Below are positions 5,328 through 63,915 of a stretch of DNA of 64,000 bases, piece by piece. Made by a program: the position numbers and the translations under genes. The notes beneath the pieces are model-generated. The model did not search any database. It was not told where the DNA came from and was given only the letters and a program-made list of their open reading frames with translations. Every line of letters begins with the position of its first letter. Within the stretch, counting starts at the first letter, position 1. Location: assembly GCA_963792575.1 (NCBI GenBank), contig CAWBWZ010000023.1, positions 1,295,487-1,359,486 on the forward strand, in the 5' to 3' direction. The DNA is from an uncultured Acidobacteriota bacterium. GTDB lineage: Bacteria > Acidobacteriota > Thermoanaerobaculia > Multivoradales > UBA5704.

Positions 5328-6387
5328 ATGCCGATCGCCGTTGACGCCATGGGGGGGGACTTGCGCCGCAGTGCGCGGTGGAGGGTGCCTTCCGCGCCGC
5401 CCGCGAGGACGGCTGCTCGATTCTCCTCGTGGGCGACCGCGCCCGCCTGGAGGCGGAGCTGCGCCAGGCACGGTCTCCCTGCGGCTTCTCGGACGGGCGG
5501 ATCGAGATCGTCCACGCCGAGGAGGTGGTGGGCATGGACGAGCCGGCGATCACCCCGATCCGCAAGAAGCGCCGCTCCTCGATGCGCCTGGCCGCCGAGC
5601 TGGTCAAGGACGGGCGGGCGGCCAGGCGATGGTCACCGCCGGCAACACCGGCGCCGCGATGATCGCCGCCAAGATGGTGATCGGCACGGTCTCCGGCGTC
5701 GACCGGCCGGCGCTCGCCGCGGTGCTGCCCAACCCGCGCGGCCGCACGGTGCTCCTCGACGTCGGCGCCAACGTCGACACCAAGCCGGTCCACCTGCGCG
5801 AGTTCGCCGTCATGGGACACTTCTATGCGCAGGAGGTGATCGGCACCCCCTCGCCGCGCATCGGCCTGATGTCGATCGGCGAGGAGGAGGGGAAGGGGAC
5901 GGACCTCACCCGCGAGGTGTTCAAGGTGCTGAAGACGACCGGCCTCAACTTCGTCGGCAACGTCGAGGGGGGGGACCTGTTCAACGGCACGGTGGACGTC
6001 ATCGTCTGCGACGGCTTCGTCGGCAACGTGGTGCTGAAGAGCGCCGAGGCGCTCGCCGAGCTGCATCCTCCGCATGCTGCGCGAGGAGATCGCGGGGAGC
6101 CCGCGCGGCAAGCTCGGCTACCAGCTCGCCAAGCCCGCCTTCGACCGCTTCCGCGAGCGCACCGACTACAGCGAATACGGCGCGGCGCCGCTGCTCGGCT
6201 TGAACGGCGGCTGCTTCATCGGCCACGGCCGCTCGAACGCCCGCGCCATCCAGAACGCCATCCGCCGGGCCATCGGAGTTCTCGAACGCCCGGCTCGACC
6301 GCAAGATCAGCGACAAGCTCGCCGAGCTGCACAGCCAGGAGGAGCGGCTCCTCGGGCGACGATCGCCAGGAGGCCGAAGCCGGATGA
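5328..6387 (+). pseudogene. plsX: phosphate acyltransferase PlsX (frame disrupted as sequenced)
   Basis: MPIAVDAMGGD starts at 5328. The motifs EGAFRAAREDG, MVTAGNTGAAMIAAK, VLLDVGANVD and LNGGCFIGHGRSNARAIQNAI lie in three frames, giving about 4 switches near 5360, 5625, 6065 and 6285. The stop overlaps the fabD ATG (ATGA). Confidence 0.9.
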
Positions 6388-7359
6388 GTCTCGACCAGGC
6401 AAGAAGCTCGCGTTCGTCTTTCCCGGCCAGGGATCGCAGAAGGTCGGCATGGGCAAGGCGTGGGCCGAGGCCTCGCCCGCCGCCCGCGAGACCTTCGAGG
6501 AGGCCGACGAGGCGCTCGGCTTCCCGCTCTCCCGGCTCTGCTGGGAGGGGCCGGAGGAGGAGCTGAACCTCACCGCCAACACCCAGCCGGCGCTGGTGGC
6601 GGCGGCGACCGCCGTCCACCGCGCGCTCGCCGTCCTGGCGCCCGAGCTCGTGCCGGTCGCCATGGCGGGGCACAGCCTGGGCGAGTACTCGGCGCTGGTG
6701 GCGGCCGGCGCGCTCGGCTTCGCCGACGCGCTGCGCCTGGTGCGCCGGCGCGGCGAGCTCATGCAGGAGGCGGTGCCGGTGGGCAAGGGGGCGATGGCGG
6801 CGATCATCGGCCTCGACGCCGAGTACGATCGCCGGCGATCGCCGCCGAGGCGACCGCGCGAGGGACGAGGTCTGCGCGGTGGCCAACCTGAACGGCCCGG
6901 CGCAGACGGTGATCGCCGGCCACAAGGGGGCGGTCGACCGCGCCGTCGGCGCTCGCCAAGGAGCGGGGCGCCCGCAAGGCGACGCTGCTCGCCGTCTCCG
7001 CGCCCTTCCATTCGCCGCTGATGCGCCCGGCCCGCGAGGGGATGGCGCCGCTGCTCGCGGCGACCGACTTCCGCGATCCGCGGGTGCCGGTGGTGACCAA
7101 CGTCGACGCCGCCCCGGCCGACCACCGGGCGACGCGGCTCGCGACGCCCTGATCCGCCAGATCGACAGCCCGGTGCGCTGGGTCGAGTCGGTGCTCTGGA
7201 TGGAGGAAGTCCTCGGGGTCGAGGCGTTCGTGGAGGTGGGGCCGGGCAACGTGCTCTCGGGGCTCAACCGGCGGATCGTCCGCTCGGCCCGCGCGACCGG
7301 GATCTCGGATCCCGATCAGCTCCGGCAGCTGCTCGGCGGAGGACGGAGGCAGAGCATGA
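6384..7359 (+). pseudogene. fabD: malonyl-CoA:ACP transacylase (frame disrupted)
   Basis: KKLAFVFPGQGSQKVGMG, GHSLGEYSALVAAG, NLNGPAQTVIAGH, VSAPFHSPLM and IDSPVRWVESV are spread over three frames. The 3' end is approximate. Confidence 0.9.
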
Positions 7360-8106
7360 TGTTGAAGCTCGACGGCAAGACCGCGCTGGTGACCGGCGCC
7401 TCGCAGGGGATCGGCGAGGCGATCGCGAAGCTCGCTCGCGCCAGCAGGGCGCGCGCGTGGTGCTGGCGGCGCGCAACGAGGAGAAGCTGAAGTCGCTGGC
7501 CGCCTACATCGACGCCGGCGGCGGCTGCGCCCGGCCGCTGGCGCTCGACGTCTCGGCAGCCGGAGACCTTCGGCGAGCGGCTGAAGAGCCTGCCCGAGGA
7601 CTTCGCGGCGGTCGACATCCTGGTCAACAACGCCGGCATCACCGCCGACAACCTGCTCGCCCGCATGTCGCTCGACGACTGGGAGCGGGTGCTGCGCACC
7701 AACCTGACCGGCGCCTTCGCGCTCACCAAGGAGGTGGTGCGGGGGATGATGAAGCGGCGCTGGGGGCGGGTGATCAACGTCTCCTCGGTGGTCGGGATGA
7801 TGGGCAACGCCGGCCAGGCGAACTACGCGGCCTCGAAGGCCGGGCTGATCGGCTTCAGCAAGTCGCTCGCCCGCGAGCTGGGGAGCCGCAACATCACGGT
7901 CAACGTGGTGGCCCCCGGCTACATCGAGACCGCGATGACCGACGGGCTGCCGGCGGCGTCCAAGGAGGAGCTCGACCGGAGCGATCGCCTTGAAGCGCCT
8001 GGGCACGGTGGACGACATCGCCTGGGCCGTGCTCTTCCTCGCCAGCGAGGAGGCGGGGTACATCACGGGGCACACCCTGAACGTCTCGGGTGGCCTCTAC
8101 ATCTGA
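7356..8106 (+). pseudogene. fabG: 3-oxoacyl-ACP reductase (frame disrupted)
   Basis: LDGKTALVTGASQGIGEAIA, NNAGIT, SSVVGMMGNAGQANYAASKAG (YxxxK), and the end [12 protein letters not shown]. There are about 3 frame switches. Confidence 0.9.
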
Positions 8107-8251
8107 AGCGCCGGGCGGAGAAACGGGAAACGGAGCCGTTGCAGCGCCTGTAGTTGATGGACTCAACAAGGAGCTTTGTGCTAGAACCGCAGGTCGTGCG
8201 CGGGCGCGCCCCGGGCCGATCACGATAAGATCGACAAGGAGGGAATCATCG

Positions 8252-8495
8252 ATGGCCATTGCAGATAAGGTCAAGAGCATCATCGTCGAGCAGCTCGGGG
8301 TCGACGAAGAGGAAGTCACGCTGGATGCGTGCTTCACCGAGGACCTGGGAGCGGATTCCCTGGACATCGTGGAGCTGGTGATGGCGTTCGAGGAGGAGTT
8401 CGGGATCGAGATCCCGGACGAGGAGGCCGAGAAGATCAGTCAACGTTCGCGAGGCCGTGGACTACATCCAGAACAACGCCGGGGACCAGAACTAG
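8252..8495 (+). pseudogene. acpP: acyl carrier protein (one indel near 8438)
   Basis: [62 protein letters not shown] contains the DSL site. The tail [18 protein letters not shown] is in another frame. Confidence 0.9.
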
Positions 8496-8535
8496 GTCTC
8501 TCTCCACCGCCACTACCCTCGACAAAGATCCAGTC

Positions 8536-9759
<1,224 letters not shown>

Positions 9760-9788
<29 letters not shown>

Positions 9789-12018
9789 CTCCCCCTTCCA
9801 CCCCCAGCAGCTCGCGCTCGAAAAACTCGGTCGCCCGGGCGTAGAAGTGCCGGAGCTCCGCCGGCCGGAAGCCGTGCTTCTGGCCGGGGTAGAAGGCCTG
9901 CTCGACGGGGAGGCCGGCCTTGATCAGGGCGCCGCTCATCTGGACGGTGTTCTGCGGGTGGACGTTGTCGTCCGCGAGACCGTGGACGATCAGCAGCCGG
10001 TCCTTGAGGTTGGCGGCGTAGGTGAGGGGGGAGGAGTCGTGGTAGCCCTCCGCGTTGTCCTGCGGGCGGTCGAGATAGCGCTCGGTCCAGATCGAGTCGT
10101 AGAGCTTCCAGTCGGTCACCGGGGCGCCAGCGATGGCGGCCTTCCAGACCCCGGGGCGGTTGAGGATGCAGTAGAGCGTGTTGGCGCCGCCGCCCGACCA
10201 CCCCCAGAGGCCGAGGCGGGAGGGGTCCACCCAGGGGAGGCTCTTCAGGTAGTCGACCCCGGCGAGCTGGCCGGCGAGGTTGACCGGGCCGAAGCGGCGG
10301 TAGTCGCGGTCCTCCCCCGACTTGCCGAAGAAGATCGAGGACTGGTTGTCGACGCTGAAGACGGCGAACCCCCGCAGGGCCATCAGCTTGTGCCAGACCG
10401 ACCGGCCCCCCCAGTTGTTGTCCACCACCTGCGAGCCGGGGCCGCCATAGTGATAGATCAGCACTGGATAGCGCTTGGACGGGTCGAAGCCGGCGGGCTT
10501 GAGCAGGCGCGCCGGCAGGCGTGAGCCGTCCGGCCCGGGGATGGTGAGGAACTCCCATCGCGGCAGCGCCGCCGCGTCGAGCTTGGGCGCGCCGGCGGGG
10601 AAGGGGACGGCCGCGCCGGCCGCGAGCCGCACCTCGATGCGCGGCGGCGTGTTGGCGTCGCTCCAGACGTGCACCCAGGAGCCGGTGCGCGGCGAAACCA
10701 GGGCCTGGTGCCAGCCGGGCGCCGGGGTCAGCACCTCCCAGTCCCCGCTCCCGGGGGTGTCGAGGCGAACCCGGGCCACCTTGCGGTCGATCGCGCCCAG
10801 CTCGGAGGTGGGGAAGCCGGTGACCAGGGCCCAGGTGCCGTCCTCCGCCACGGAGTCGAGGGCGGTGATCGACCACCCTTCAGGGGTTACCGGGCGCACC
10901 AGCGTGCCGTTGGCGGCGTAGAGATAGAGGCGGCGCCAGCCGCCGCGCTCGGAGCCCCAGAGAAAGTGGCCGTCGGGGAGGAACCGGAAGTCACGGCCGA
11001 GGTTGATCCAGGTCCGCCATTGCTCGGTTACCAGGGTGACGCAGGCGCCGTCGGCGGCGTCGCAACGGAGGAGGTCGAGCCGGTTCTGGTCCCGGTTCAT
11101 GCGCTGGATGGCGACCGCGTCCCCACGCGGCGTCCATTCGAGCCGCGCCAGGTAGGAGGTGGGGTCGCCGGTCTTCATCCAGGTGGTTTTGGCGGTGGCG
11201 AGATCGGCGACGCCGATCCTCACCTGCGGGTTGTTGGTGCCGGCCTTGGGGTACTTCTGCAGGAGGATCTCCGGGTAGAGCGGAGAGTCGTTCAGCAGCG
11301 AGTAGATGCCGACCGAGCGCTCGTCGAAGCGGTAGTAGGCGAGGTGGGAGCTGTCCGGGCTCCACCAGTAGGCGCGGGGCTCGCGGTCCCAGATCTCCTC
11401 GCCGTAGACCCAGTCGACGATGCCGTTGAGCGTGTTGTTCTCCCGGCCGTCGCTGGTCAGCCGGGTCTCCTGCCCCTTCGCGATGTCGAGCACGTAGAGA
11501 TCCTGGGCGCGCACGAAGGCGATGCGGCGGCCGTCGGGCGAGAAGCGGGCGTCGGTCTCCTCGATCTCCGTGCGGGTCAGCCGGCGGAGCTTTCCGGCCT
11601 TGAGGGTGGAGGGAGCGAGCGGCAGCAGGTAGAGATCGCCCTTGGAGGCGAGGAGCAGAGAATCCCCCTGGGGGGACCAGGAGTAGGCGTCGAGATCGAA
11701 GTCCTTCCCACCTTCCCCCAGATCCGCGAGCTTCGCCAGGATCTCGCTGCGGCCGGTCGCGGCGTCGTAGAGCCAGAGGGAGTCCTTCGCATCCTTGCCA
11801 CTATTACCTTGGTTATCGCCGTCCCAGACGTAGATCAGGCGCTTGCCGTCCGGGGACCAGGCCTGCTGCAGCGGCCGGCGTCCGTAGGCGTCCGGCGCCA
11901 GGGCGGTCTCGATCGTGAGCGGGGCGGTCTGCTCCTGCGGCGGGACCTCCGGGGTCGCGGCACGGGGGGTGAGCGCCGCGGCGACGGCGAGGCAACAGGC
12001 GATGAGCGGATGACGCAT
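9760..12018 (-). CDS. dipeptidyl-peptidase IV / prolyl oligopeptidase S9 family, secreted
   Basis: Intact 752-aa ORF with a signal peptide ([16 protein letters not shown]), propeller repeats ([16 protein letters not shown]) and the catalytic GWSGGG and DDNVH motifs. Confidence 0.9.
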
Positions 12019-12122
12019 GCGTTCTCTCCTCCAGGGTGGTCGGAAGCGGGGGTGAGTTTACCGCGTGGGGCCTCCGGGGCCTCAAGACACCCTTTACAGG
12101 GCTCCTTCCCATCGGGGATGAC

Positions 12123-12259
12123 CTGCCCTCCGAGTCCTCACCCTCGGTCCCTCTCCCGGGGGGAGAGGGAGGGCCCTGCGGCGCAGGATTATGCCGAATC
12201 GTAGGGCCCTCCCTCTCCACGAAGTGGAGAGGGACCGAGGGTGAGGATTCGGAGGGCAG
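12123..12259. repeat. palindromic element, family 2, copy E1
   Basis: The ends CTGCCCTCCG (12123) and CGGAGGGCAG (12259) are inverted. Each arm holds its own hairpin, CCCTCTCCCGGGGGGAGAGGG and CCCTCTCCACGAAGTGGAGAGGG. Confidence 0.8.
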
Positions 12260-12379
12260 GGCGCTCCGCCCGGCAAGATGCCTATGAACCCGGGCTCTCC
12301 GCCTCCGGGGCCTCCTGCAACCTTTTCCTCCCCCCGCCCGTAGTGCTCAACGGAGAATGGAAAACCGGAGGCAAAAGCC

Positions 12380-13573
12380 ATGAAGCCAGAGACGAAGATT
12401 TCCGCGTTGGCCCTGGGGCTGGCGCTGGCGGCCGGGAGCACGGCCGCTCTTTTCGCGGAGCAGCAGGTCCGCTCCTTTCAGCAGCCCTTCCCGGCGACGG
12501 GCGAGGTGCGTCTCGCCAATCTCGCCGGCCACATCGAGATCGTGCGCGGCCAGGGGCCGAACGTGGTGGTCGACGCGACCGTCCACGCCGAGGCCGGCAG
12601 CGCCGCCGAGACGCAGCGGCTGCTCCAGGGGATGCGGTGGGTGAAGGGGCACGACAAGAAGGGGCGCCCGGAGTGGGCCCTCTCCTATCCGGTGGAAAAG
12701 TACCGGTCCTACAGCTATCCCACCGAGAAGAGGGGGGAGGGGGACGACTCGGGCCTGCCGTCCTTCCTGAGCTTCCTCAGCAACATCGGCAACACCACGA
12801 CGACCTACCGTGGCGAGCGGGTGAAGATCTACTACCGGAAGAGCTCGGCGCCGACGCTCTACACGGACCTGCGGATCTCGCTGCCGGCCGGCGCCAACCT
12901 GGCGTTCAGCAACGCGGTCGGCAAGGTGCGCGGGGGGGACCTCGAGGGCACCCTGGCGATCTCGACCGGCAGCGGCGACGTGCAGGTCGCCTCGCAGTCC
13001 GGCCAGCTGGGGATCGAAACCGGCTCGGGCGACGTCGTCGTCGGCTCGGCCCGCGGCGAGACCGCGATCAGCACCGGCTCGGGGGATGTGATCGTGCGGC
13101 GCTTCGTCGGCAACGGCTCGGTGGAGACCGGCTCGGGGGACGTGGTCGTCCAGAAGGTCTCCGCCGGCAAGCTGACCCTCGACACCGGCTCGGGCGACGT
13201 CACCCTGCAGGACGGCGAGGCCGGCCGGGTGGTCGCGAAGACCGGCTCCGGCGGCGTCCGGGTGCTCTCGGTCGAGCTCGAGGATCTGATCGCGGAGACG
13301 GGATCGGGCGACGTCACGGTGCAGAGCTCGCTCGCCAGGACCCGGCGGCTGAGCGCCGAGACGGGCAGCGGCGACATCGACATCAAGGCCGGTTCGAACG
13401 CCTCGTTCAACATCGACTCCGACCAGGGGAGCGGCGATCTTAATGTGCGCTACGGCGACGCCGTCCTCCGCAAGTCCGGCCACAAGGTGGTGGGCGCCAG
13501 GCGCGGCAACGGCCGCACCGAGATCCACGTCGAGACCGGCAGCGGGGACTGCACGATCCGGCCGCAGGGGTAG
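12380..13573 (+). CDS. DUF4097-type beta-strand repeat protein, secreted
   Basis: Intact 397-aa ORF with a signal peptide and about ten TGSGD(V/I) repeats between roughly 12960 and 13540. Confidence 0.75.
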   Translation: MKPETKISALALGLALAAGSTAALFAEQQVRSFQQPFPATGEVRLANLAGHIEIVRGQGPNVVVDATVHAEAGSAAETQRLLQGMRWVKGHDKKGRPEWALSYPVEKYRSYSYPTEKRGEGDDSGLPSFLSFLSNIGNTTTTYRGERVKIYYRKSSAPTLYTDLRISLPAGANLAFSNAVGKVRGGDLEGTLAISTGSGDVQVASQSGQLGIETGSGDVVVGSARGETAISTGSGDVIVRRFVGNGSVETGSGDVVVQKVSAGKLTLDTGSGDVTLQDGEAGRVVAKTGSGGVRVLSVELEDLIAETGSGDVTVQSSLARTRRLSAETGSGDIDIKAGSNASFNIDSDQGSGDLNVRYGDAVLRKSGHKVVGARRGNGRTEIHVETGSGDCTIRPQG

Positions 13574-13580
13574 GGGAGAA

Positions 13581-13732
13581 CCCTCACCCCTGGCCCCTCT
13601 CCCGTCCCCTCCCGCCCTCCCTCACCGGGAGAGGGGAACCCCCGCCCAGAAAATCGTTTTGACTAACTTCTCCCTCTTCTCCCGGTGAGGGAGGGGGGAG
13701 GGGACGGGAGAAGAGGGCCGGGGTGATGAGGG
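13581..13732. repeat. palindromic element, family 2, copy E2
   Basis: CCCTCACCCCTGGCCCCTCTCCCGTCCCCTCCCGCCCTCCCTCACCGGGAGAGG and its inverted copy fill the whole convergent gap between the stops at 13573 and 13733. Confidence 0.85.
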
Positions 13733-15397
13733 CTACATCTTCCCGTAGTTCGGCCCGTCGCCCCCCTCGGGGGGTACCCAGGTGATGATCTGGTAGGGGT
13801 CCATGATGTCGCAGGTCTTGCAGTGCACGCAGTTGCTGGCGTTGATCTGCAGCCGGCGGCCGGCGGGGGTGGTGGGGTCCTCCACCATCTCGTAGACGGC
13901 GGCGGGGCAGAAGCGCTGGCAGGGGTTGGCGTACTCGACGGTGCAGCGCTCGACGCAGATGCTGGTGTCATGCACCAGCAGGTGGACCGGCTGATCCTCG
14001 TCGTGGGCGGTGCCGGAGTTGTAGACGTCGGCCAGGCGGTCGAAGGTGAGCTTGCCGTCGATCGCGACCGGCGCCGGCTTTTCGAGCCGCTGCCCCTCGG
14101 GAGTGTTGAGCGGGACCATCCGCTCGTGCCCCGCCTCGGTCAGCAGCCGGTCCTTGACCCCCCAGCCGCGCCCGCCGGTCACGATCCCCAGGCCCCCCTG
14201 GAGGAAGCCGCCGAGCAGGCCGTGATCGAAGGACTGGTGGAAGTTGCGCACCGGCCAGAGCTCTTCCTTGACCCAGCTGGCGTCGACCTTGGCCTGATAG
14301 GCCGCCAGCCGCTCGGCGGTGGCGCCGCCGGCCTTCAGGGCCTCGACGATCGTCTCGGCGGCCAGCATGCCGGACTTCATGCCGAGGTGGATCCCCTTCA
14401 GGCGCTGGCTGTTGAGCATGCCCGCCGAGTCGCCGACGATCAGGAAGCCGTCGCCGTGCGGGCGCGGCATCGACCACCAGCCCCCCTCGGGGATCGCCTT
14501 GGCGCCGTAGAAGGACATCTTCCCGCCTTCGAGCATTTTGGCGATCTCGGGGTGGGTCTTCAGGCGCTGGAACTCGGCGTGCGGATCGAGCAGCGGGTTC
14601 TTGTAGTCGAGCCCGACGACGAGGCCGACGATGAGCTGGTCGTTCTGCATGCCGTAGATGAAGCCGCCGCCGAAGTTGTCGAAGCCCAGCGGCCAGTTCA
14701 TGGTGTGGATCACGCTGGCCGGCTGCGACCCGGCCCGGCAGGAAGGTCCCAGACCTCCTTGAGGCCGATGGCGTAGAGCTGCGGGTTCTTCCCCTTCCAG
14801 AGCTCGAACGGCTCGGCGAGCTGCTTGACCAGGGTGCCGCGCACCCCTTCGCCGAGCACCGTGACCTGGGCGCGGATGTCGACGCCCGGCTCGTAGTTGG
14901 CCTTCTTTTCGCCGGTGCGGGAGATCCCCTTGTCGCCGGTGCGGACGCCGACCACCCGGCCGTCCTCGACCAGGGCCTGGGCGGCGGGGAACTCGAAGAA
15001 GATGTCCACCCCCTCGGCCTCGACCTTCGGTGCCATCCACTTGAGGAGCTTGCCGAGGGAGGCGACGTAGTTGCCGTGGTTGTTCATCGGCGGCGGAACG
15101 GGGATCGAGTGCGCCTTCGTGGACGTCATCCAGAGCACCTTCTCCCCCTTGATCTCGCCTTCGAAGGGGGCGGACTGTCCAGTCGTCCGGGAAGAGCTCC
15201 TTGAGGGCCCGCGGGTCGACCACGGCTCCCGAGATCGCGTGGCTGGTGATCTCCCGCCCCTTCTCAAGGACGCCGATCGAAAGCTCCAGGCCGTTCTGCT
15301 TGGCCAGCCGGGCGAGGTGGCAGGCCCCCGCCAGGCTGGCCGGCCCGGCGCCTACGAAGACGACATCCAGCTCCAGAGTTTCGCGCTCGTCGCTCAT
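13733..15397 (-). pseudogene. electron-transfer flavoprotein:ubiquinone oxidoreductase (two compensating frameshifts)
   Basis: N-terminus LDVVFVGAGPASLAGA and C-terminal 4Fe-4S region CQRFCPAAVY...CVHCKTCD. The middle segment (NHGNYVASLGKLLKWM...GVRGTL) is read only in ORF 14710..15267. Confidence 0.9.
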
Positions 15398-15494
15398 TGA
15401 TGTGATTTCCTCCCCGAGGGATGAAACAGAACCGTCACTCGCGGGGCTTGAAAGCCCATCCAGGACGGCGCCGGGATGCTACCATGGCGCTTCC

Positions 15495-16555
15495 ATGGCC
15501 GTCATGGAGACCCAACTCAAAGCAGGTCCCAAGCTCCCGGACAGCGCGGTCGCCCCCGAGAGCCCCTCCACCGAGCGGCTCCGCCTCAGCCGCGTCGGCG
15601 CGGCGCGCGTCGCCCCGACCTTCGCGGAGGACGTCCGCCGCGGTCTCACCTCGTCCCCCAAGTTTCTCTATCCCAAGTACTTCTACGACGAGCTGGGCTC
15701 GCGCCTGTTCGAGGCGATCACCGCGCTGCCGGAGTACTACCCGACGCGGGCGGAGGCCGAGATCCTGCGCACCCACGCCAGCGAGATCGTCGCCACCCTC
15801 GGCGGGCCGGTCTGGCTGCTGGAGCTGGGGAGCGGCGACGGGCAGAAGACGCGGCTGGTGATCGAGGCGCTGCTGGCCCGCCAGGGGAAGCTCGAGTACG
15901 TGCCGGTGGACATCTCCGAGTCCGCCGTCGAGACGAGCAGCCGCTCGCTGCTCTTCTCCTATCCGGAGCTCCGCATCACCGGCTATATCGGGGAATACCA
16001 GACAGCGCTCCGCAAGATCCGGGAGGACCGGCGCGCGCCCGGGCTGACGCTCGTCCTCTTCCTCGGCTCCACCCTGGGCAACCTCGACCCGGAGGAGCGG
16101 CGGCGTCCTGCTGCGCGACGTGCGGGCGCTGCTCGAACCCCGGCGAGGGCTTGCTCCTCGGGGTGGACCTCAAGAAGCCCGAGAGCGTGCTGATTCCCGC
16201 CTACGACGACGCGCTGGGGGTGACCGCGGCGTTCAACCTCAATCTCCTCGTCCGCATCAACCGCGAGCTGGGGGGGGACTTCGATCTCGGCGCCTTCCGC
16301 CACCGGGCGGTCTACAACCGCGGGAAGGCCGGATCGAGATGCACCTGGAGAGCCGCCGCGCGCAGACGGTGGCGATCCGGGAGCTGGGAATCGAGGTTCC
16401 CTTCGCCGCCGGGGAGACGATCCACACCGAGAGCTCCTACAAGTTCGACCGCGAGCAGATCGCGGCGCTGGCCGCGGAGACCGGCTTCGAGCGTGCGCAA
16501 GACATGGACCGACTCCGAGGGGCGGTTCGCGTCGAATCTGCTGGTGGCGCGGTAG
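15495..16555 (+). pseudogene. egtD: EgtD-like L-histidine N-alpha-methyltransferase (frame disrupted)
   Basis: [60 protein letters not shown] and ESSYKF. There are about 3 frame switches near 16100, 16320 and 16505. Confidence 0.8.
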
Positions 16556-53097: not shown

Positions 53098-55031
53098 TCA
53101 GTCGGAGGCCGCCGGCGGCGGCGTCCGCCTTGGCGCGGGAACGGCGCCGTCCGCCTCTGCGGCCGCGGCGCCGAGGCGCGATTCTACGCCATCGGCCGCC
53201 GTCGTCGCCGGTCTCGTCGCCGGTCGGCCGCGACTCGGCGTCGACCAGCGAGGCGGTGGCCGCGGTGCGGCCCGACCTCCTCGATGCGCACCAGCCGCTT
53301 CTCGCCGACGTAGCGGGCCGCCGCCGGCGACCGAGATGATGTAGCCGTCGATCTTGGCCACGGCGTCGTCGACGTTGTACATGTGCGGCTCGACGATCTG
53401 GACGAGCACCTCGTCGCCCTCGCGGAACGGCAGCGCGCGCTCCTCGACCTCGCTCGCGCGAGCCCTCCAGCGTGACCGCGAAGTGGTCGAGCGGCAGGCC
53501 CTCGGAGCCCTCGAAGTGGAAGAGCTTGCCGGTCTCGTCCTCGAGCGCCGTGCAGCATGCCGCGCGCCGTTGCCGGTGAACTGCGGCGGTCACGCGCGGG
53601 TTGACCTGGACCAGGAACGCCTCGGGCGTCCGTGCGCTCCGCGGCGAGCTCGCGCAGCTGGCGCTCGACCTCGATCGCGATCGTCTCCTCGGACTGGATC
53701 ACGCCCTCGCCGTCGCAGGTCGGGCAGGCGCGGGTCATGATCTCGCGCACGCCCTCGGTGACGTTCTGGCGCGTCATCTCGACCAGGCCGAGCGGCGAGA
53801 TCTCGACCACGAAGGTCTTCGTGCGGTCCTCGTCGAGCGCCTTGCGCAGCGTCTTGAGCACCGCGTCGCGGTTGCGCGCCCGCGCCATGTCGATGAAGTC
53901 GATGACGATGATCCCGCCGATGTCGCGCAGCCGCAGCTGGTGGACGACCTCCTCGGCCGCCTCGAGGTTGGTCTTCGTGATCGTGTCCTCCAGGCGCGCG
54001 CCCTTGCCGCGGCCGATGAACGAGCCGGAGTTGACGTCGATGACCGTCAGCGCCTCGGCGTAGTCGATCATCAGGTAGCCGCCGCTGGGCAGGTCGACGC
54101 GGCGCGAGAGCACGCCCTCGATCACCTGCTCGACGCCGTAGCGCTCGAACAGCGGCTCGCTCGTCCTCCTAGAGCTCGACGCGGTCGACCAGCTCGGGCG
54201 CGGTGCGGGTGAAGAACGAGACCAGCCGGTGGTGCTGCTTCGGGTCGTCGACGATCGCGCGCTCGAACTCGGCCGAGAAGATGTCGCGCACGACGCGCAC
54301 CGACAGGTCGGCCTCCTGGAAGACCATCGCCGGGGCCGGTCGGTCTCCTCGACGCGCTTCTGGAGCACCTCGTGGAGCTTGTACAGGTACTGCAGCTCGC
54401 GCTCGAAGTCCTCGCGCTTGGCGCCGTGGGCCGCGGTGCGGATGATCGCGCCGCCGCCGCTGGAGGTCGAGCTTGGCGACCTCCTTGCGCAGGCGGTCGC
54501 GCTCCTTGTCGTCGAGCCGGCGCGAGACGCCGACGCCCTCGCCCGGTCGGCGCGTAGACCAGGTAGCGGCCGGCGATCGAGAGCTCCATCGACAGGCGCG
54601 CGCCCTTGGTCTTCAGCGGGTCCTTGACGACCTGGACGACGATCTCCTGGCCGGGCTTGAGCAGGTCGGTGATCTTCTGCCGCCCTTGCCGCGCGCCGCG
54701 GCCGCGGCGGGCGCCTCGACGCCGGGCAGCACGATCTCGTCGACGTGCAGGAAGCCGTTCTTGTCGAGGCCGATGTCGACGAACGCGGCCTCGAGGCCGG
54801 CGCAGGACGTTGTCGACCTTGCCCTTGTAGATGTTGCCGACGATCGAGCGCGCGCCGCGGCGCTCGATGTAGAGCTCGGCGACGCGGTAGCCCTCGCGCT
54901 GGGCGTCGGCGGCTTCTTGCGGCGCCTGCGCGCGCCGTGCGCCTTCGGCGGCGGCCGGCTTGCCCGTCGCCTCGAGCAGCGCGACGCGGGTCTCCGCCGC
55001 GGTCGACGCTGACCAGTACTTGCTTTTTCAC
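53098..55031 (-). pseudogene. rne: ribonuclease E/G family (many frame switches and an in-frame TAG)
   Basis: GTG start after AAAGGAAGAG. NIYKGKVDNV (S1 domain), GFLHVDE, IDVNSGSFIG, GGIIVIDFIDM, CPTCDGEG. Confidence 0.85.
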
Positions 55032-55048
55032 GATGAGATTCTCTTCCT

Positions 55049-56270
55049 TTAGAGGTCGAGCGCCCGGCCCTTGAGGCGGCATGCCGATGCGCGCGCCTTG
55101 CACGTAGATCGACTGCAGGAGGCCGAGCGGCCAGGAAGGTGACGAGGACCGAGGAGCCGCCGTAGCTCATCAGCGGCAGCGGGACGCCGGTGATGGGCAT
55201 GATCCCGATGGTCATGCCGACGTTGACGAAGACCTGGAACATCAGCATCGCGACGATGCCGCCGGCGATCAGCGCGCCGTACAGGTTCTTCGCCATGGTG
55301 AGGATGCGCAGCGCCCGCCAGATCAGCAGCGCGTAGAGCGAGAGCACGAGCGCCGCGCCCAGCGAAGCCGTACGTCTCCCCGACCACGGCGAAGACGAAG
55401 TCCGTGTGGTGCTCGGGGAGGAAGTTGCAGCTTCGTCTGCGTCGCGCCGTGCGACGCCGCGGCCGGTCTTCTGGCCGGCGCCGATCGCGATCCGCGACTG
55501 GTTGAGCTGGTAGCCCTGGCTCTGCGGGTTGTCGGACGGGTTGAGGAACGCCGTCAGGCGCTGCACCTGGTAGGGCTTGCAGCACGCTGCACGCCGACCG
55601 CGGGCGCGACGACGAGCACCAGGGTGATCGCGACCGCGAACGTCGCGCCGAGCACCGCGAAGTGCTTCCACGAGGTGCCGGCCACGAACAGCACGGCGAC
55701 GGCGATGACCACGTAGACCATGCCGCTGCCGAGGTCGGGCTGGACGATCACGAGCACCGCCGGCACCAGCGCGAGCAGCATCATCCGCGCCGTGGTGTCG
55801 CGCTCCTGCAGCCGGCGCGAGCGGTCGACCACGAAGGCCGACGAGCGCGAGCACGAGCAGCAGCTTGCCCAGCTCGGACGGCTGGAAGCGGAAGAACGGC
55901 GAGGTCGATCGCAGCGCTCGCGACCCGCGCGACGCGGCGCCGAGCGCGAGCACGAGCAGGATCGACGCCGATCATGACGCCGTAGAGGCCGTACTTCAGC
56001 TCGCGCAGGCGCGAGTAGTCGAAGCGGCTGACGCCGAGCATCAGGACGAGCCCGACGCCCGCGAACAGCGGCCTGGCGGTCGACGTAGTAGTGCGGCGAC
56101 GCCGGGGATGTCGTCGCGCGTCGCGCCGCCGACCGTGACCAGCGAGCAGACGACCAGGCCGAGCGCGGCGAGCAGCAGCAGCGGGTCGATCCGCAGCAGC
56201 GGCGGGCGCGGCGGCGGCCGTCGTCGCCGTCCTCCGTCGCGGCCTGTGGATCGGGCTGCGGCGTGCTCAT
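55049..56270 (-). pseudogene. rodA: SEDS-family peptidoglycan glycosyltransferase RodA (frame disrupted)
   Basis: FQPSELGKLLLVL, HTDFVF, MFQVFVNVGMTIGIMPITGVPLPLMSYGGSS. Confidence 0.85.
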
Positions 56271-58172
56271 CGGGTCGTCGACGAGTCCCGGCGACGAACT
56301 TCTTCTGCACGCCGAACCACTGCGACAGGATCAGGCGCGCCGCCGGGCGCCGCCGCCTCGGCGCCGAAGCCGCCCTGCTCGATCGGTGACGGCGACCACG
56401 ATCGGCGTGCTCGGGTCGGGCGCGTAGGCGACGTACCAGGACTGGTCGGCCTGGCCCGGGCGCTCGGCGGTGCCGGTCTTGCCGTAGACCTGGTGCGGGA
56501 AGCCGCGCGAACACGTCGGCCGAGGTGCCGCCCGGCTGCGTGGCGGCCGCGTGCAGGCCGTCGAGGATCGCCTGGCGGTTAGCCGGGTCGATGTGCGATC
56601 TTGCGGCCGCGCCGGGCTGGATCGATCTGCAGCACGCGGCCGGCCGCGTCCTCGACCTCGCAGGCCGACGTGCGGCGTGCACGACGGCCGCCGTTGGCGA
56701 CGTCGAGTAGGCGACGGCCATCTGCAGCGGCGTGGCCTGCAGGTCGCCCTGGCCGACGGCGAGGTTGACGTTGTCGCCGACCGACCACGGGCGGTCGGTG
56801 CAGCGTTCTTGCTGGAACAGGCTGGTCGCGCCACGCGCGGCGTCGGCAGCAGGCCCGGCGAACTCGCCGGGCAGGTCGATGCCGGTGCGGCGGCCGATGC
56901 CGAGGCGGTGGCGCCCACGTCTGCAGCGCCTGGTCGCCGCCGTTGCTGTTCAGCCGCGCGCCGAGCGTGTAGAAGAAGACGTCCGAGGACACCTGCAGCG
57001 CCTGCGCGCAGCGCGATCGCGCCGTGGCGGCGTGCCGCCCGAGTTCTGGAAGACGATGTTGCCGATCTGCACCGAGCCGGGGTCGTCGATGACCGTGTCC
57101 GGGCGTGAATGCGCCCGCTCTGGAGCGCCGGCCGATCGCGGTGATCGGCTTGAACGTCGACCCGGTCGGGTACACGCCGCTGGATCGCGCGGTTGAGCAG
57201 CGGCGCGCCGTTGTTCGGCGACGTGCAGCGCCTTGTAGCGCGCGCTCGGTCAGCGGCTTGGCGAACACGTTCGGGTCGAAGCTCGGCGTGGAGCCCAGGG
57301 CGAGGACCTCGCCGTTGCGCGGGTCCATCGCGACGAACGCGCCGCGGCCGTTGCCGCAGGCCGGCGATCGCCTGCTGCGCCCTCGCTCTGCAGGCCGAGG
57401 TCGATCGACAGCTTGAGGTTCTTGCCCTGCGTCGGGCTCGCGCAGCGAGAGCTCGCCGGTCGGCCGGCCCGAGCGCGTCGACCTGGACGCGGGTGGCGCC
57501 GTCGCGGCCGCGCAGGTAGCGGTCGTAGGTGTACTCGATCCCGCCTGGCCCACGACCGTCGCCCTGCTGGACGCCCCGGAACTTGAGGAGCTTCAGCTCG
57601 CCCGGGCTGATCTGGCCGACGGTGCCGAGCATGTGCGCGCCGACTGTCTCGTACGGGTACTGGCGCAGGTACACGCTGCGCGACCGTGACGCCGGGGAAG
57701 GAGTCCTGGCGCTCGAAGAGGTACGAGTAGCACGTCGCGCGAGGCGTCGGACTTCACCGTCGCGGGCGCGTAGGGCAGCGAGCTTGCGCTGGCGTTGCAC
57801 CTCCTGGTCGATCTGGCTGGGCGTCTCGCCGATGATCTGGCCCAGGCGGCGGTACACGCCGGCGCGCCGGGGCCCGGCCGGCGGCAGCTTGCGCGGGTCG
57901 ACCTGCACGGCGATCGACACGCGGTTGTCCACCAGCACCTTGCCGTTGCGGTCGACGATGTCGCCGCGCGGCGCCGGCACGTCGACGTCGCGGACGCGGT
58001 TGTTGTTCGCCTGCGCGCGGTACTTGTCGCCCGACAGCACCTGGAGGAACCACAGGCGGAAGAAGATGATCGCGAACATCGTCAGGGCGATCCCGCCGAG
58101 GATCGCCACGCGCAGCGCGAGCTGCGGCGTGATCGGCGGGCGGCGCTCGTCGGGCAGCTGGAGCTGGAGCAT
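56267..58172 (-). pseudogene. mrdA: penicillin-binding protein 2 (heavily frame disrupted)
   Basis: FFRLWFLQVLSGDKYRAQANNNRVR, PAPRGDIVDRNG, YGKTGTAE. ATGA overlap with rodA. Confidence 0.8.
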
Positions 58173-58181
58173 CGGCGGCCG

Positions 58182-58747
58182 CTACGCCCTCGAGATCGGG
58201 CTGAGCCCGCCGGTCGTGTAGGCGCGCCGGCGACGGCGGCGCGGGTCGTCGGGCAGCAGCGGCAGCAGCACGCGGCGGACGACGCGTAGACCGGCAGCGC
58301 GATGATCGTGTTGACGGCGATCGTCACGAGGATGTCGCGGAGCAGCAGCCAGCTCACGGGCGCGTCGACGCCGAGCAGGAACTGGATCACCGAGAACCCG
58401 AGCGCGGCGATCGCGGTGGCGGCGGCGCCGACCGCGACCGGCGTCAGCGCGTGGGCGGGGTCGCGCAGCTCGCGCAGCGCGCCCGGCGCCGTAGCCGATC
58501 GCGATGTAGACCAGCGACGACACGCCGAGCGTCTCCACGAGCGCCGAGTCCACCAGCAGCCCCATGCCGAATCCCATCAGCGCGCCCGGGATCGAGCCGG
58601 TCAGCAGGCCGACCGACATGACCACGAGCGGGGCGAGGTCGGCGCTCACGCCGAAGACCGAGATCTGCGACACGGCGGCGATCTGCACGATCACCGTCAC
58701 GAGGCCGAGCGATCGGCCAGGCGCAGGCGTCAGCTGGGCGCCGTCGC

Positions 58748-58751
<4 letters not shown>
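58182..58751 (-). pseudogene. mreD: rod shape-determining protein MreD (frame disrupted)
   Basis: Polytopic hydrophobic ORF directly after mreC (ATGA overlap), read in two frames. Confidence 0.7.
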
Positions 58752-60728
<1,977 letters not shown>

Positions 60729-60848
60729 TTAAGCGGCGGAGGAATGCCGTCACGCCGAAAGCACCGTCGCGCCCGGCGCCAGTGTAGCGAACGCCCTCGT
60801 GCCGATCCGGCACGGCCGTTGCCGTGATTGCGGGGAAAACGCCCGATA

Positions 60849-61408
60849 TCAGGGCCCCGGCTGGCGGGATCGCGCAGGTCCGGCACCAGCTCGATGAGCG
60901 TCGGCCACGGAGAGCCCGACGACGTTGAGGTAGTCGCCCTCGATCGTCCGCACCAGCGTCGGCCCCGCGACCCTGGATCGCGTAGCCGCCCGGCGCGGCT
61001 CGCGCCATTCTCCGGACGCGACGTAGCAGTCGAGCTCCGCGGAGCCGAGATTGCGGAACGTCACGCTGGTGGCGACCGCCGCGCTGCGCTGCGCGCCGTC
61101 GCGGCGAACCGCGAGGCCGCCGACCACGACGTGGGTCCGGGAGGCGAGCGCCTCGAGGAACTCGCGGGCCTGCGTCCTCGTCGGTCGGGCTTGCCGAGGA
61201 TCCGGCCCTCCAGCGCGACGACGGTGTCGGCGCCCAGGACCAGCGTCGCCCGGCCACCGCGCCGGCCTTGCGCGCCGCGTTCTCGGTCGCCACCGCGAAC
61301 GGATCGCCCTCCTCCAGCTCCTCGACGTCGGCCGGGCCGGACCTCGAAGGGCACGCCCGAGCTGCTCGAGGATCGCCCGGCGCTGCGGCGAGCGCGACGC
61401 CAGGATCA
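60849..61408 (-). pseudogene. maf: Maf-like nucleoside triphosphate pyrophosphatase (frame disrupted; ends approximate)
   Basis: [53 protein letters not shown]. Confidence 0.75.
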
Positions 61409-61810
61409 GAGGTCCGGGAAGAACAGGCCGACCTCGCGCGCCGCGGACTCGTTGGAGTCCGAGCCGTGGACCATGTTCTGCCCGACCTCGAGCGCGAAGT
61501 CGCCGCGGATCGAGCCGGGCGCGGCCTCGAGCGGGTTCGTCGCGCCGATGACCTGGCGCGCGGCGACCACCGCCTCGTGGCCCTCGAGCACCATCGCCAC
61601 GAGCGGGCCCGAGGTGATGAACTCGACCAGCTCGCCGAAGAACGGCTTGCCCTCGTGCTCGGCGTAGTGCTGCTCGGCCAGCGCGCGGTCCATGGTCATG
61701 AGCTTCAGCGCGGCGATCCGCAGGCCCTTGCGCTCGAAGCGGGCGACGATCTCGCCGGTCAGGCCGCGGGCGAAGGCGTCTGGCTTGACCAGGATCAGGG
61801 TGCGGTCCAT
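61406..61810 (-). CDS. ndk: nucleoside diphosphate kinase
   Basis: Intact 134-aa ORF: [11 protein letters not shown]...GSIRGDF...NMVHGSDS. Confidence 0.95.
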
Positions 61811-61835
61811 GCGTGAGTTCCTCAGTTCTCAGTTG

Positions 61836-62462
61836 TTAGTTCTCAGTTGTCAGAGCGGCGCGGCGCCAGTTCTGACGACTGACGACTCGACGACTGACGA
61901 ACTCGAGCCCTAGGAGCTCGGTGGCGCCTGAGCCTCGGTGCACTTCGGCCACCGCCGCTGCTCGGGCGTCGTGCCGGTCCTTCGCCGGCGCCGGCGGGTC
62001 GGCTGCGGCTCGCCCTGGGCCGACCTCGGCCTCGCAGAACGGGCAGACCTTCCAGCGCGGGTCGAGCGGGCGCGAGCAGTTCGCGCACGGGCTCTTGAGC
62101 CGGCGCATGCAGTTGGGGCAGCGGAGGAAGTCGCGCTCGATCTCGGCGTCGCAGTGCGGGCAGAGCATGTAGCCGAGCTGGGCCACGCGCGCCTCGGCGG
62201 CCTGCATCTCGAGCTCGCGCTCGCGGACGTCGTCGAGGTACTCGGGCGGGCGCACGATCATGTAGACGACGCAGCCGACGAACGGGAAGAGCGACGCGGC
62301 GGTCGCGCACCCGATCAGCATCGGGTCCTCCATGCGCCGGCGGGCGTCGGCGTACGTCCAGTAGACCATCGCCAGCCAGATCACGACCAGGCAGAGGATC
62401 AGCAGGTTGACCGCCAGGTTCAGGCCGTCGCTGTCGATCCCGAAGATCCCGAACGGGAACAT
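61836..62462 (-). CDS. membrane protein with C-terminal double zinc ribbon
   Basis: Intact 208-aa ORF with two TM segments, then CPHC...CPNC...CANC...CPFC. The last ~20 codons run through a repeat/hairpin region. Confidence 0.6.
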   Translation of the reverse strand: MFPFGIFGIDSDGLNLAVNLLILCLVVIWLAMVYWTYADARRRMEDPMLIGCATAASLFPFVGCVVYMIVRPPEYLDDVRERELEMQAAEARVAQLGYMLCPHCDAEIERDFLRCPNCMRRLKSPCANCSRPLDPRWKVCPFCEAEVGPGRAAADPPAPAKDRHDARAAAVAEVHRGSGATELLGLEFVSRRVVSRQNWRRAALTTEN

Positions 62463-62534
62463 CGTGGCGCGCGAGTGTAGCCGCCCGCCGGCGTCCGCGA
62501 TACAGCCGGTAAGCGGATTGCAGCGGTCCGTCGT

Positions 62535-62654
62535 CTACAGGAACAGCCGCCCGAAGGCGTAGCCGATCCCGAAGAACACGAGGATCACGAGGGCGACGAT
62601 GACCGCCACCAGGGCGATCATCGGCAGGAAGTGCGGGACGTCGTCGTCGTTCAT
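62535..62654 (-). CDS. 39-aa single-pass membrane peptide (tentative)
   Basis: MNDDDVPHFLPMIALVAVIVALVILVFFGIGYAFGRLFL. Its ATG overlaps the folC stop (ATGA). Confidence 0.4.
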   Translation of the reverse strand: MNDDDVPHFLPMIALVAVIVALVILVFFGIGYAFGRLFL

Positions 62655-63915
62655 GGCATTCGGGCCCGCGCCGCCCGGCGAGCGTGCGCGAGGCCCGCGA
62701 CAAGATAGATGGAGCCGGTGGCCAGCACCATCCCGGCCGGTCCCGCGATGCGCGCGCGCCCGCTCCAGGGCGCGCTCCGGGTCGCCCACCACCTCGGCGT
62801 CGCCGGTGAAGTCGAGCTGGCGCGCGAGCGACTCGAGCGTGGCGGGCGGAAGCGCGCGCGGGTTGGGGTTGGAGGTGAACACCACCGCGCGGCAGGCGGG
62901 CAGCAGCGCGCGCAGCATCCCGGCGGCGTCCTTGTCGTCGAGGATCGACACGACCGCCACGAGCGACTCCCGCGGCGGCGGCGGGCAGCGACGCGACCAG
63001 CGCGGCCACCCCGCTGGGGTTGTGGGCGCCGTCGACGATCGTCAGCGGCTCGCGCGCCACGACCTCGAAGCGGCCCGGGCACGCGTGACCTCGGCGGCCG
63101 CGCGCGGCGCACCGCGGCGTCGTCGAGCTCGCCCAGGAACGCCTCGGCGGCGGCGCGCGCGAGCGCGAAGTTCGGCCGCTGGAAGGCGCCGCCGGCGGCC
63201 AGCGTCGACGCCCGGCGTCGGCGGGCGCGTGCACGAGCCGCGCGCCGTGGCGGGCGGCGGCCGCGCGCGCCTCCGCCTCGGCCTCCGGCGTCGAGCGTCG
63301 CCGACGACCAGCGTCGCGCCGTCGCGCACCACCGCCAGCTTCTCGCGCGCGATGTCGGTGACCGTCGGCCCGAGCCAGCGCGTGTGCTCGAGGCCGACGT
63401 TGGTCAGCACCTGCACGCGCGAGGGGATCACGTTGGTGGCGTCGTAGCGCCCGCCGAGGCCGGCCTCGACCACGGCGACGTCCACGCCGCGCGCCGCCAG
63501 CTCGCAGTAGGCCGCGGCGGTCAGCGCCTCGAACTGCGTGACGCGGTCGCCCTCGGCCAGCGTGCGGTCGACCAGCGCGGCGGCGTGGGCGGCGCGCTCG
63601 ACCGCGGCGGCGAACGCGGCCTCGTCGAGGTCGCGCTCGCCGACGCGCACGCGCTCGGCGAAGCTCGCCAGGTGCGGCGACAGGTAGGCGCCGCGTGCGC
63701 ACGCCGTGGCGCTCGAGGATCGCGGCGATCATGCGCACGGTCGAGGACTTGCCGTTCGTGCCGACGACGTGGATCGACGTCGAAGCGGCGCTGCGGCGAG
63801 CCCAGCGCCGTCATCAGCCGGTGCATGCGGTCGAGGCCGAAGCGCATCCCGAACAGCTCGAGGGAGCGCAGGTAGCGCCTCGGCCTGCGCCGGCGTCCAG
63901 GGCTCGCCGCGTCAC
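62651..63915 (-). pseudogene. folC: dihydrofolate synthase / folylpolyglutamate synthase (frame disrupted)
   Basis: LELFGMRFGLDRM, VVGTNGKSST, EAGLGGRYDATNV, VLTNVGLEH, ILDDKD, TGSIYLV. GTGA overlap with the upstream gene. Confidence 0.85.

Follow-up and report, generated by a model that had tools for sequence, protein, structure and literature searches.

The broken genes in the window (the whole stretch of DNA analysed here, 64,000 nucleotides long) are artefacts, and nothing in their frame breaks is biological. Comparison with related assemblies indicates that they most probably arose during assembly, when two lineages were collapsed into one sequence and both of their alleles were kept in tandem; a chimeric tail at the end of the contig is a separate matter. 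The genome comprises 8.05 Mb in 26 contigs with 68% GC and is scored by markers as 76% 'complete' with 3.3% 'contamination'.

Number and type of the frame disruptions

As a reference for 5.3–49.3 kb we used G001, a congener of ~94% nucleotide identity with intact genes. Its alignment with the window contains 268 gap events; in 144 of them the window has a single base more than G001, and in 68 a single base fewer. When gap events no more than 15 nt apart are merged, ~121 net frameshifting events are left (94 in genes and 27 intergenic), at a mean density of ~2.6/kb. A further ~126 net frameshifting clusters were counted in the tail (49.4–64 kb) against G021, an MFD 'uncultured Actinomycetes' MAG, which brings the total nearer to 250 than to the 100–170 frame switches given in the initial annotation. 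Its statement that the disruptions are numerous and very unevenly spread holds: eleven genes or gene parts, ~9.8 kb altogether, are free of events where ~25 would be expected at ~2.6/kb.

The disruptions had also been described as mostly 1-nt deletions or insertions, some of them in homopolymers. Single-base changes do prevail, but they are mostly insertions and mostly lie outside homopolymers: against G001 the inserted base is the same as its neighbour in 25 of 118 cases, and ~75–80% of the frame-shifting events of the window are located outside homopolymers. In a 216-kb genome-wide sample, isolated coding events comprise 232 of the +1 type versus 39 of the −1 type (~6:1), and 76% of the isolated +1 events are non-homopolymer. 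Both in the window and in this sample the commonest insertion contexts are GcG and CgC. Counts of insertion sites by codon position are 48/43/27, so that insertions are only slightly under-represented between codon positions 1 and 2.

Homopolymer errors of Nanopore sequencing are similar in that single-base indels fragment genes and lower completeness in long-read MAGs (PMC12313526; PMC9262707). Such errors occur within runs, consist mainly of deletions and become more frequent with homopolymer content and at low GC. Our main event class does not have this profile: 76–79% of the insertions lie outside homopolymers, insertions exceed deletions 6:1, and the genome has 68% GC.

Gene finding relied on codon log-odds learned from the genome itself, and gene identities were confirmed via NCBIfam on the intact G001 orthologues (plsX, fabD, fabG, acpP, fabF, hisS, hutH, aroDE, hisZ, hisG, hisD and others). 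Frameshifts hit 81 of 155 genes genome-wide; in the window, hisS and trp, fab and his genes are among those affected. Comparison with a close relative had been proposed as a check, and the one with G001 confirms the frameshifts: orthologues of the disrupted genes are all intact there, and the disruptions are not common to the genome and its closest relative. Neither sharing with relatives, nor slippery sites, nor sparing of essential genes was observed, as would be expected from pseudogenes or programmed frameshifting; essential genes carry ~2–3 artificial frameshifts per kb genome-wide, in patches. Pseudogene-rich genomes produced by reductive evolution, such as that of Mycobacterium leprae, also have many disrupted conserved genes. 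Real decay, however, leaves essential genes alone, combines deletions with stops and insertion sequences and is common to close relatives, while here essential genes are hit at 3–9/kb, nearly all events are +1, the genes of the closest relative are intact and the extra base corresponds to a known alternative allele.

Blocks of damage along the window

In the 216-kb sample the frameshifts have a dispersion index of 3.3, and 57 of the 1-kb bins are empty versus 16.6 expected. Their autocorrelation is 0.45 at 1 kb, extends to ~3–5 kb and is gone by 6 kb. This clustering is carried by the +1 non-homopolymer class (dispersion 2.4), whereas the homopolymer-type events form a minor background of 0.1–0.3/kb with a dispersion of ~1.2. 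The damage comes in contiguous blocks of 1–10 kb, whose edges fall within genes.

Alignment to G001 resolves the Acidobacterial part of the window into three insertion-dense blocks separated by clean or sparse zones. The first block (5313..8522) covers plsX, fabD, fabG and acpP, as identified by NCBIfam on the G001 orthologues, at 4.0–5.5 net frameshifts/kb. It is followed by a clean block (8523..14725) with fabF, an S9/DPP-IV-like peptidase, DUF4097/LiaG and the 3′ two-thirds of ETF-QO. Here fabF has a single −1 at 9212, and positions 9808–13573 are devoid of net frameshifts versus G001; this interval takes in most of the peptidase (9760–12018, 92% identity to G001 over its full length) and the whole of DUF4097/LiaG (12380–13573). 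The second dense block (14726..20485) contains the 5′ part of ETF-QO, egtD, tRNA-His, hisS and hutH, and its edge at 14726 is inside ETF-QO. In the next zone (20486..35674), with radical-SAM, asnB-like, DedA-rhodanese, aroDE, hisZ, hisG, hisD, hisC, hisB, hisH, hisA and hisF genes, events are sparse where G001 provides a reference, that is, outside 20.6–22.4 and 30.1–32.2 kb; hisZ and hisF have none, the asnB-like gene has one +1 at 24331, and a small insertion cluster is located at 29296–29882. The third dense block (35675..45363; 3–9 net frameshifts/kb) runs from the end of hisIE through trpE-G-D-C-F-B-A, a hydrolase and a small lipoprotein to an ntrC-like regulator. Events become sparse again in 45364..49393, with which the Acidobacterial part of the contig ends: topoisomerase IB has three, while a histidine kinase, yciE and an ORF of 84 aa have none.

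The event-free set thus consists of a 436-aa hypothetical gene, a yceD-like gene, the S9/DPP-IV peptidase (2.2 kb), DUF4097/LiaG, DedA-rhodanese, hisZ, the start of hisD, hisF, the histidine kinase, the 84-aa ORF and yciE. Of the genes that had been listed as intact, the 436-aa hypothetical, DPP-IV, DUF4097, hisF, the kinase and yciE are found here, but the radical-SAM gene has a +1 at 22597 and the FAD enzyme is not intact either. The latter, an ETF-QO-like oxidoreductase (13733..15397, minus strand), is an open ORF of 554 aa; alignment and BLASTP against the 553-aa G001 protein show that its residues ~74–224 (about 150) are out of frame, with a +2 at 14726/14734 and a +1 at 15177. An open ORF is therefore not the same as an intact gene at 70% GC, and hidden frameshifts should be reckoned with inside open ORFs as well.

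The initial annotation had seen a contrast between conserved and less conserved genes as the organizing principle and had suggested tabulating indels against conservation. This did not hold up: fabF, hisZ and hisF are clean, and across 155 genes genome-wide frameshift density shows no correlation with divergence at non-synonymous sites (rho −0.04, P-value 0.65), the most conserved tertile having 1.68/kb and the least conserved one 2.49/kb. The result bears on the possibility that reads of other species cross-mapped onto conserved housekeeping genes, so that conservation decided which sequence was corrupted. In the window, insertion density does rise modestly with the nucleotide identity between G001 and congeners (rho 0.46, 0.32 and 0.35), and every 1-kb bin with <85% identity to the congener G003 holds no more than two insertions. 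However, besides the genome-wide result, such cross-mapping does not agree with block edges within genes or with the clean state of the highly conserved fabF, hisZ, hisF and half of ETF-QO, and we think it improbable. It should be noted that one locus, L127, is only 73–81% identical to congeners and yet is among the densest loci; it is a large paralogous family, poorly conserved among congeners and frameshift-rich, and is better taken as a counter-example than as a proper test. Two other candidate drivers of the blocks were discarded, GC or GC3 content (rho 0.06 and 0.13) and divergence from G001 (rho −0.09).

Inserted bases and alternative alleles

Congeners often carry the inserted base as their own allele at the adjacent site (33% of cases for G003, 36% for G007 and 48% for G006; classes Lx, xR and LxR). 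Among 549–630 simulated non-homopolymer random insertions, used as a control, the corresponding values are 5%, 7% and 10%, i.e. the observed match is 5–7 times more frequent. A clean gap in the congeners, in turn, is seen for 15–32% of real insertions versus 58–71% of simulated ones. Individual alignment columns illustrate the effect at 16492 (GTG/CTG), 17193 (AGC/ACC) and 36835 (GGC/GCC). The allele pair is C/G at 27 of 34 identifiable sites (79%) versus 31% of ordinary mismatches. The indels are not biological, as the initial annotation had concluded: the G001 orthologues are intact and the inserted bases are alternative alleles. Among the causes it had listed, the best fit is a consensus of co-assembled related lineages that was collapsed or mis-polished, given the allele match at 5–7 times the simulated level and the 79% of C/G pairs.

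Random long-read errors offer a different account: they would have been left in chunks of very low coverage or skipped by the polisher, with blocks reflecting coverage fluctuations on the scale of read length. Blocks of 1–10 kb are indeed close to the length of soil Nanopore reads, the highest density (8.6/kb) is reached in the chimeric tail, which plausibly has the support of very few reads, and the MFD long-read paper ties gene-calling trouble to lower-coverage MAGs (PMC12313526). But random errors would match congener alleles no more often than the simulated insertions do, and would not give 79% of C/G pairs. Homopolymer deletions would be expected from them, and not a +1 to −1 ratio of 6:1 with 76% of events outside homopolymers. 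They should also bring more unique substitutions into dense zones, where we see fewer: window-unique substitutions make up 15–19% in dense zones versus 28–34% in clean ones, so the dense zones are not of raw-read quality. We consider this account unlikely, though a little less so than cross-mapping. Strand-specific basecalling errors at DNA-modification motifs, turned into pseudo-heterozygous sites and doubled by the consensus, are a far fainter prospect. While a 50:50 split between strands would supply the allele balance needed for doubling, and G/C-rich contexts dominate, the event listing of the window shows no motif recurring around the sites, such errors would spread evenly and not in blocks, and the inserted bases are real alleles of congeners.

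Allele doubling thus remains the reading in line with what was found, namely the allele match, contiguous stretches independent of gene function and the lack of a substitution excess. Under it, reads from two or more related lineages, collapsed onto a single path, would have gone into a long-read metagenome consensus. Wherever these lineages differ, chiefly by C/G transversions, both alleles would be kept next to each other (C/G becoming CG or GC), and each doubled allele would add one base and shift the frame. Doubling would be limited to kilobase stretches with reads of both lineages and would leave single-lineage stretches clean, so that patchy two-lineage coverage would put heavily damaged and untouched genes side by side, whatever their function. 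Ordinary +1/−1 errors of the homopolymer type would add a low background on top, spread more or less evenly. Presumably, with both alleles near 50%, a rare C↔G mismatch is less acceptable to the polisher than 'two deletions in reads'; sequencing was probably by Nanopore, with Flye and Medaka as the pipeline. That the +1 doubling at C/G sites is a systematic, sequence-specific failure of likelihood-based consensus when two lineages have near-equal depth is a more tentative proposal, to which we give somewhat less than even credence. The two haplotypes themselves are deduced from comparison of assemblies, and a separately assembled haplotype with a second copy of the window was not found in the bin.

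Several features fit this model less tightly. The congener-allele match covers only a third to half of the insertions, and the remaining ones could be private alleles of the second lineage or another type of error. Of the inferred polymorphic sites, 14 of 33 fall at third codon positions; this amounts to no enrichment, whereas natural polymorphism should have given a stronger signal. Mismatches of the C/G type to G001 are raised in dense bins (from 15.4 to 22.5/kb) while transitions are not, and a collapse of lineages accounts for this only loosely. A second lineage resembling G001 found no support, as it predicted fewer ordinary C/G mismatches in dense bins and the opposite is seen.

Mixed haplotypes at heterozygous sites are the target of haplotype-aware polishers and of the strain-resolving Strainberry and Strainy (cited in PMC13087279). 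Our case is like other collapsed-haplotype consensus errors in its merged path, its errors at differing sites and the confinement of damage to collapsed stretches, and unlike generic ones in the tandem alleles, the +1 frameshifts and the strong bias to C/G transversions. A literature search on allele doubling in MAG consensus sequences returned general context only, and the signature was not found described. If our interpretation is true, this consensus failure touches a share of the public long-read soil MAGs that serve as species representatives, and strain mixing, collapsed blocks and the alleles of a second lineage can be read from an assembly alone. A non-homopolymer +1 that makes CG or GC at a site variable among relatives would then be a cheap, read-free diagnostic of strain-collapsed stretches, whereas quality checks focused on homopolymers will miss doubled-allele errors.

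The Actinomycetota tail

Homology to G001 and G007 stops at 49393 and homology to Actinomycetota begins at 49405. The ~11 bases between them (49394..49404) make up the junction, at which no shared repeat or tRNA was found. From 49405 through the last position of the window (64000) and on to the end of contig C23, the sequence is Solirubrobacterales-like, 83–89% identical to G021 at the nucleotide level all the way, and no match above 72% was found for it in same-genus genomes. This part of the window (49405..64000) contains proB, obg, an SDR gene, the rpmA region, rne, rodA, mrdA, mreD, mreC, mreB, maf, ndk, a gene for a 208-aa membrane protein and the folC/valS region, with ~8.6 net frameshifts/kb. 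The CTCTAGGAGGAC motif, cited earlier for an in-frame stop in rne, is at 54163–54174 on the minus strand. The intact ndk (61406..61810, minus strand) is 92% identical to that of Solirubrobacterales-type MAGs and ~40% identical to its counterpart in the host genus. Copies belonging to the host lie elsewhere, ndk on contig C2, mreB on C10 and obg/rne on C9, and the synteny of G001 beyond the junction maps to C16:1013-11648, at the start of contig C16.

An abrupt taxonomic switch is thus combined with the presence of the true neighbour and of host gene copies elsewhere in the assembly. Judged by homology, 49405–64000 is DNA of another phylum wrongly joined to the contig end, and by synteny the true continuation of the Acidobacterial contig is the start of C16. 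The initial annotation had listed proB, obg, rne, rodA, mrdA, mreBC, maf, ndk and folC together with the other genes; they lie on the chimeric tail, and the proB-obg-rne-rodA-mrdA-mreBCD-maf-ndk-folC cluster is actinomycete DNA not attributable to the Acidobacterium. The misjoin would have lengthened the contig by 21.9 kb of DNA from the same sample, probably via a chimeric read or an error in the assembly graph. The insertion profile is as in the rest of the window (142 insertions, 40 deletions, CgC and GcG at the top), and the tail appears to be itself a heavily collapsed consensus.

One could still suppose that everything is real, the frameshifts through mass pseudogenisation or recoding and the actinomycete segment through horizontal transfer of a 22-kb housekeeping cluster. 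Nothing beyond the deposited sequence speaks for this, and its probability is negligible in view of ~2–3 frameshifts/kb across essential genes genome-wide, inserted bases that are alternative alleles, a tail placed exactly at the contig end with the authentic neighbour at the start of C16, and a host that keeps its own ndk, mreB and obg.

The abrupt switch of phylum within one contig is a feature in common with chimeric contigs and misjoins of long-read metagenome assemblies (error classes evaluated in PMC13087279; GUNC-type chimerism). Particular to this chimera is its size: a terminal tail of 21.9 kb on a contig of 1.37 Mb is too small to be caught by whole-contig statistics. The duplicate ndk, mreB and obg contribute to the 3.3% of 'contamination'. 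Patches with ~2–3 artificial frameshifts/kb have to be taken into account in gene calling, in counts of pseudogenes, in the completeness value (76%) and in any reading of recoding or attenuators in this genome. Other few-contig congeners with depressed completeness have a split peptidase gene.

Distribution of frame disruptions

The genome to which the window belongs (8.05 Mb, 26 contigs, 68% GC) has a marker-gene completeness of 75.7%, versus 97–100% in short-read congeners. The closest relative among the genomes compared, G001 (540 contigs, ∼94% nucleotide identity), has intact genes and is collinear with the window from 3.4 to 49.3 kb; G003, G006 and G007, further members of the genus, are likewise collinear at 78–90% identity. 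A codon-usage gene finder trained on the genome under study finds whole genes across the G001 loci versus mere fragments in the window, whose gene names were verified via the intact G001 orthologues.

Alignment of the window to G001 shows 268 gap events, including 144 single-base insertions in the window and 68 single-base deletions. After merging of events no more than 15 nt apart, 121 net frameshifting events are left (+1: 81; +2: 15; –1: 13), 94 of them in genes. Our data show that these are distributed non-randomly, as the initial annotation had proposed: plsX-fabD-fabG-acpP (5.3–8.5 kb), egtD-hisS-hutH (14.7–20.5 kb) and the stretch from trpEGDCFBA to ntrC (35.7–45.4 kb) carry 4–9 net frameshifts per kb, versus none in ∼9.8 kb of other genes, where ∼25 would be expected at the mean rate. 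Among the latter are the S9/DPP-IV peptidase (2.2 kb), DUF4097/LiaG, hisZ, hisF, a histidine kinase and yciE. Not every ORF that is open is intact, however: the 554-aa ETF-QO ORF is open and yet out of frame at residues ∼74–224 (insertions at 14726/14734 and 15177). At 70% GC, finding a frame without stops says little about whether the gene is intact. The earlier tally of 100–170 frame switches was also incomplete: the region 49.4–64 kb adds ∼126 net frameshifting clusters, which brings the window total near 250. Nor was the type of indel, described as 1-nt deletions or insertions partly in short homopolymers, correctly given. Insertions prevail and lie mainly outside homopolymers, the inserted base being identical to a neighbour in just 25 of 118 cases, with GcG and CgC as the commonest contexts.

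The same picture extends genome-wide. When 20 further G001 contigs and the window loci were aligned to the whole genome (216 kb aligned), single insertions in coding sequence numbered 2.98 per kb, against 1.48 per kb for single deletions. Counted in 1-kb bins, net frameshift clusters are strongly uneven (dispersion index 3.3): 57 bins are free of any cluster versus 16.6 expected, and the autocorrelation of the counts falls from 0.45 at 1 kb to ∼0.1 at 3–5 kb and is nil by 6 kb. Gene conservation, by which damaged and intact genes had been set apart, is not supported as the explanation. Over 155 genes frameshift density is not correlated with non-synonymous-site divergence (rho –0.04, P = 0.65; 1.68, 1.50 and 2.49 frameshifts per kb from the most to the least conserved tertile), and we found no relation to divergence from G001 in the 216-kb sample, or to GC or GC3. 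Inside the window insertion density rises modestly with nucleotide identity to congeners (rho 0.32–0.46) and every bin less than 85% identical to G003 is nearly clean; as a counter-example, locus L127 (G001:C3:1-20000) is only 73–81% identical to congeners, yet it is among the densest loci for frameshifts. Because the edges of dense blocks in the window lie within genes, the conserved fabF, hisZ and hisF are undamaged and L127 is dense, the pattern is a mosaic of blocks; genes are not separated by how important they are.

L127, which corresponds to C5:116676-136701 of the genome under study, is a 20-kb locus made up of members of a very large family of paralogues; each congener genome contains dozens of 2–3 kb matches at 66–70% identity. 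Frameshift density at this locus reaches 15 per kb. In the largest clean block of the window, the DUF4097/LiaG region (11586-13735) is common to G001, G003 and G007 and absent from G006, a structural variation among congeners. Upstream of the aro-his-trp cluster lies a histidine-themed neighbourhood (15495-19959) with egtD (ergothioneine histidine methyltransferase), tRNA-His(GTG), hisS and hutH in tandem order. A dispersed repeat of ∼250–290 bp at 23497-23795, between radical-SAM and asnB-like genes, may be a MITE-like element; it has >20 copies (86–95% identity) on contigs of this genome and is multi-copy in G001 too.

Nature of the inserted bases

For non-homopolymer insertions, where the window reads L-x-R and G001 reads L-R, the base x is found at the adjacent position in G003, G007 and G006 in 33%, 36% and 48% of cases, respectively, and a clean gap in just 15–32%. 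As a control, the real insertions were removed and 549–630 others, matched in base usage, were placed at random outside homopolymers; here congeners carry x in 5–10% and a clean gap in 58–71%. Column views show G in G001, C in congeners and CG in the window (e.g. 16492, 17193, 36835), and the allele pair is C/G at 27 of 34 identifiable polymorphic sites versus 31% of ordinary mismatches. The congener match and the column views together indicate that the window holds both alleles in tandem, and on this comparative evidence we read it as a common supersequence of two related haplotypes. The indels are then not biological, as had been concluded, and the suggestion of a collapsed consensus of co-assembled lineages gains support.

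Dense zones might alternatively be merely noisy, unpolished sequence. This is argued against by window-unique substitutions, which are fewer there (15–19% versus 28–34% in clean zones). Splitting isolated coding events by type separates two processes: a dominant class of non-homopolymer +1 events (0.93/kb) that is clustered (dispersion 2.4), and a thin, nearly Poisson background (dispersion ∼1.2) in which +1 and –1 events of the homopolymer type occur at 0.1–0.3/kb.

A foreign tail and a probable misjoin

No match above 72% was found for window positions 49–64 kb in four same-genus genomes. Acidobacterial homology ends at 49393; an alignment to G021, an 'uncultured Actinomycetes' MAG, starts at 49405 and continues at 83–89% nucleotide identity up to the end of contig C23, on which the window occupies positions 1295487-1359486. 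The intact ndk found here shares ∼40% identity with its counterpart in each genome of the genus and order and 92% with that of 'uncultured Actinomycetes' and Solirubrobacterales MAGs; the native ndk sits on contig C2. G001 sequence downstream of the breakpoint maps to the start of contig C16. From these observations, the proB-obg-rne-rodA-mrdA-mreDCB-maf-ndk-folC cluster appears to be a 21.9-kb chimeric tail, the last 14.6 kb of the window coming from another organism. Neither a repeat nor a tRNA is present at the junction after 49393. The error profile of the tail is the same as elsewhere, insertion-dominated and of CgC/GcG type (142 single insertions versus 40 deletions), with 8.6 net frameshifts per kb. 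C16:1-11648 is the authentic chromosomal continuation of the Acidobacterial part, and C23, trimmed at ∼1,344,880, can probably be joined to it.

Possible mechanism and related cases

We infer from the comparative data that alleles may have been doubled by a likelihood-based polisher. Such a consensus scores reads against candidate sequences and could favour 'CG' over 'C' or 'G' near a 50:50 mixture, because charging every read a single deletion costs less than assuming that half of them miscall C↔G. In nanopore data C↔G is the rarest substitution. Transition polymorphisms would be cheap mismatches, so that one allele wins without doubling. Costly C↔G mismatches and cheap transitions would explain both the C/G bias and the need for balanced depth, and the latter would explain the blocks: damage where two lineages collapsed onto one path, clean sequence where one lineage alone maps. 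The lack of enrichment of inferred polymorphic sites at third codon positions fits this model less well, as do the raised C/G mismatches in dense bins and the failure to find an alternative copy of the window in the bin. A Nanopore/Flye/Medaka pipeline is plausible for this genome, since the MAGs most closely related to the foreign tail come from the Microflora Danica Nanopore set, which was built using Flye followed by a single Medaka round (PMC12313526).

As judged by these comparisons, the finding amounts to an assembly artefact plus a misjoin, of low biological interest; it serves as a warning for GCA_963792575.1 and could also provide an error signature that is recognisable. Other species representatives may carry similar consensus damage. 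Among few-contig genomes of the genus and order, two more have an S9 peptidase orthologue broken over different frames, at G005:C11:404244-406445 and G013:C7:227562-229760. Completeness is 91% for G005, only 81% for G009, another few-contig genome, and 99% for G013 despite its split peptidase gene.
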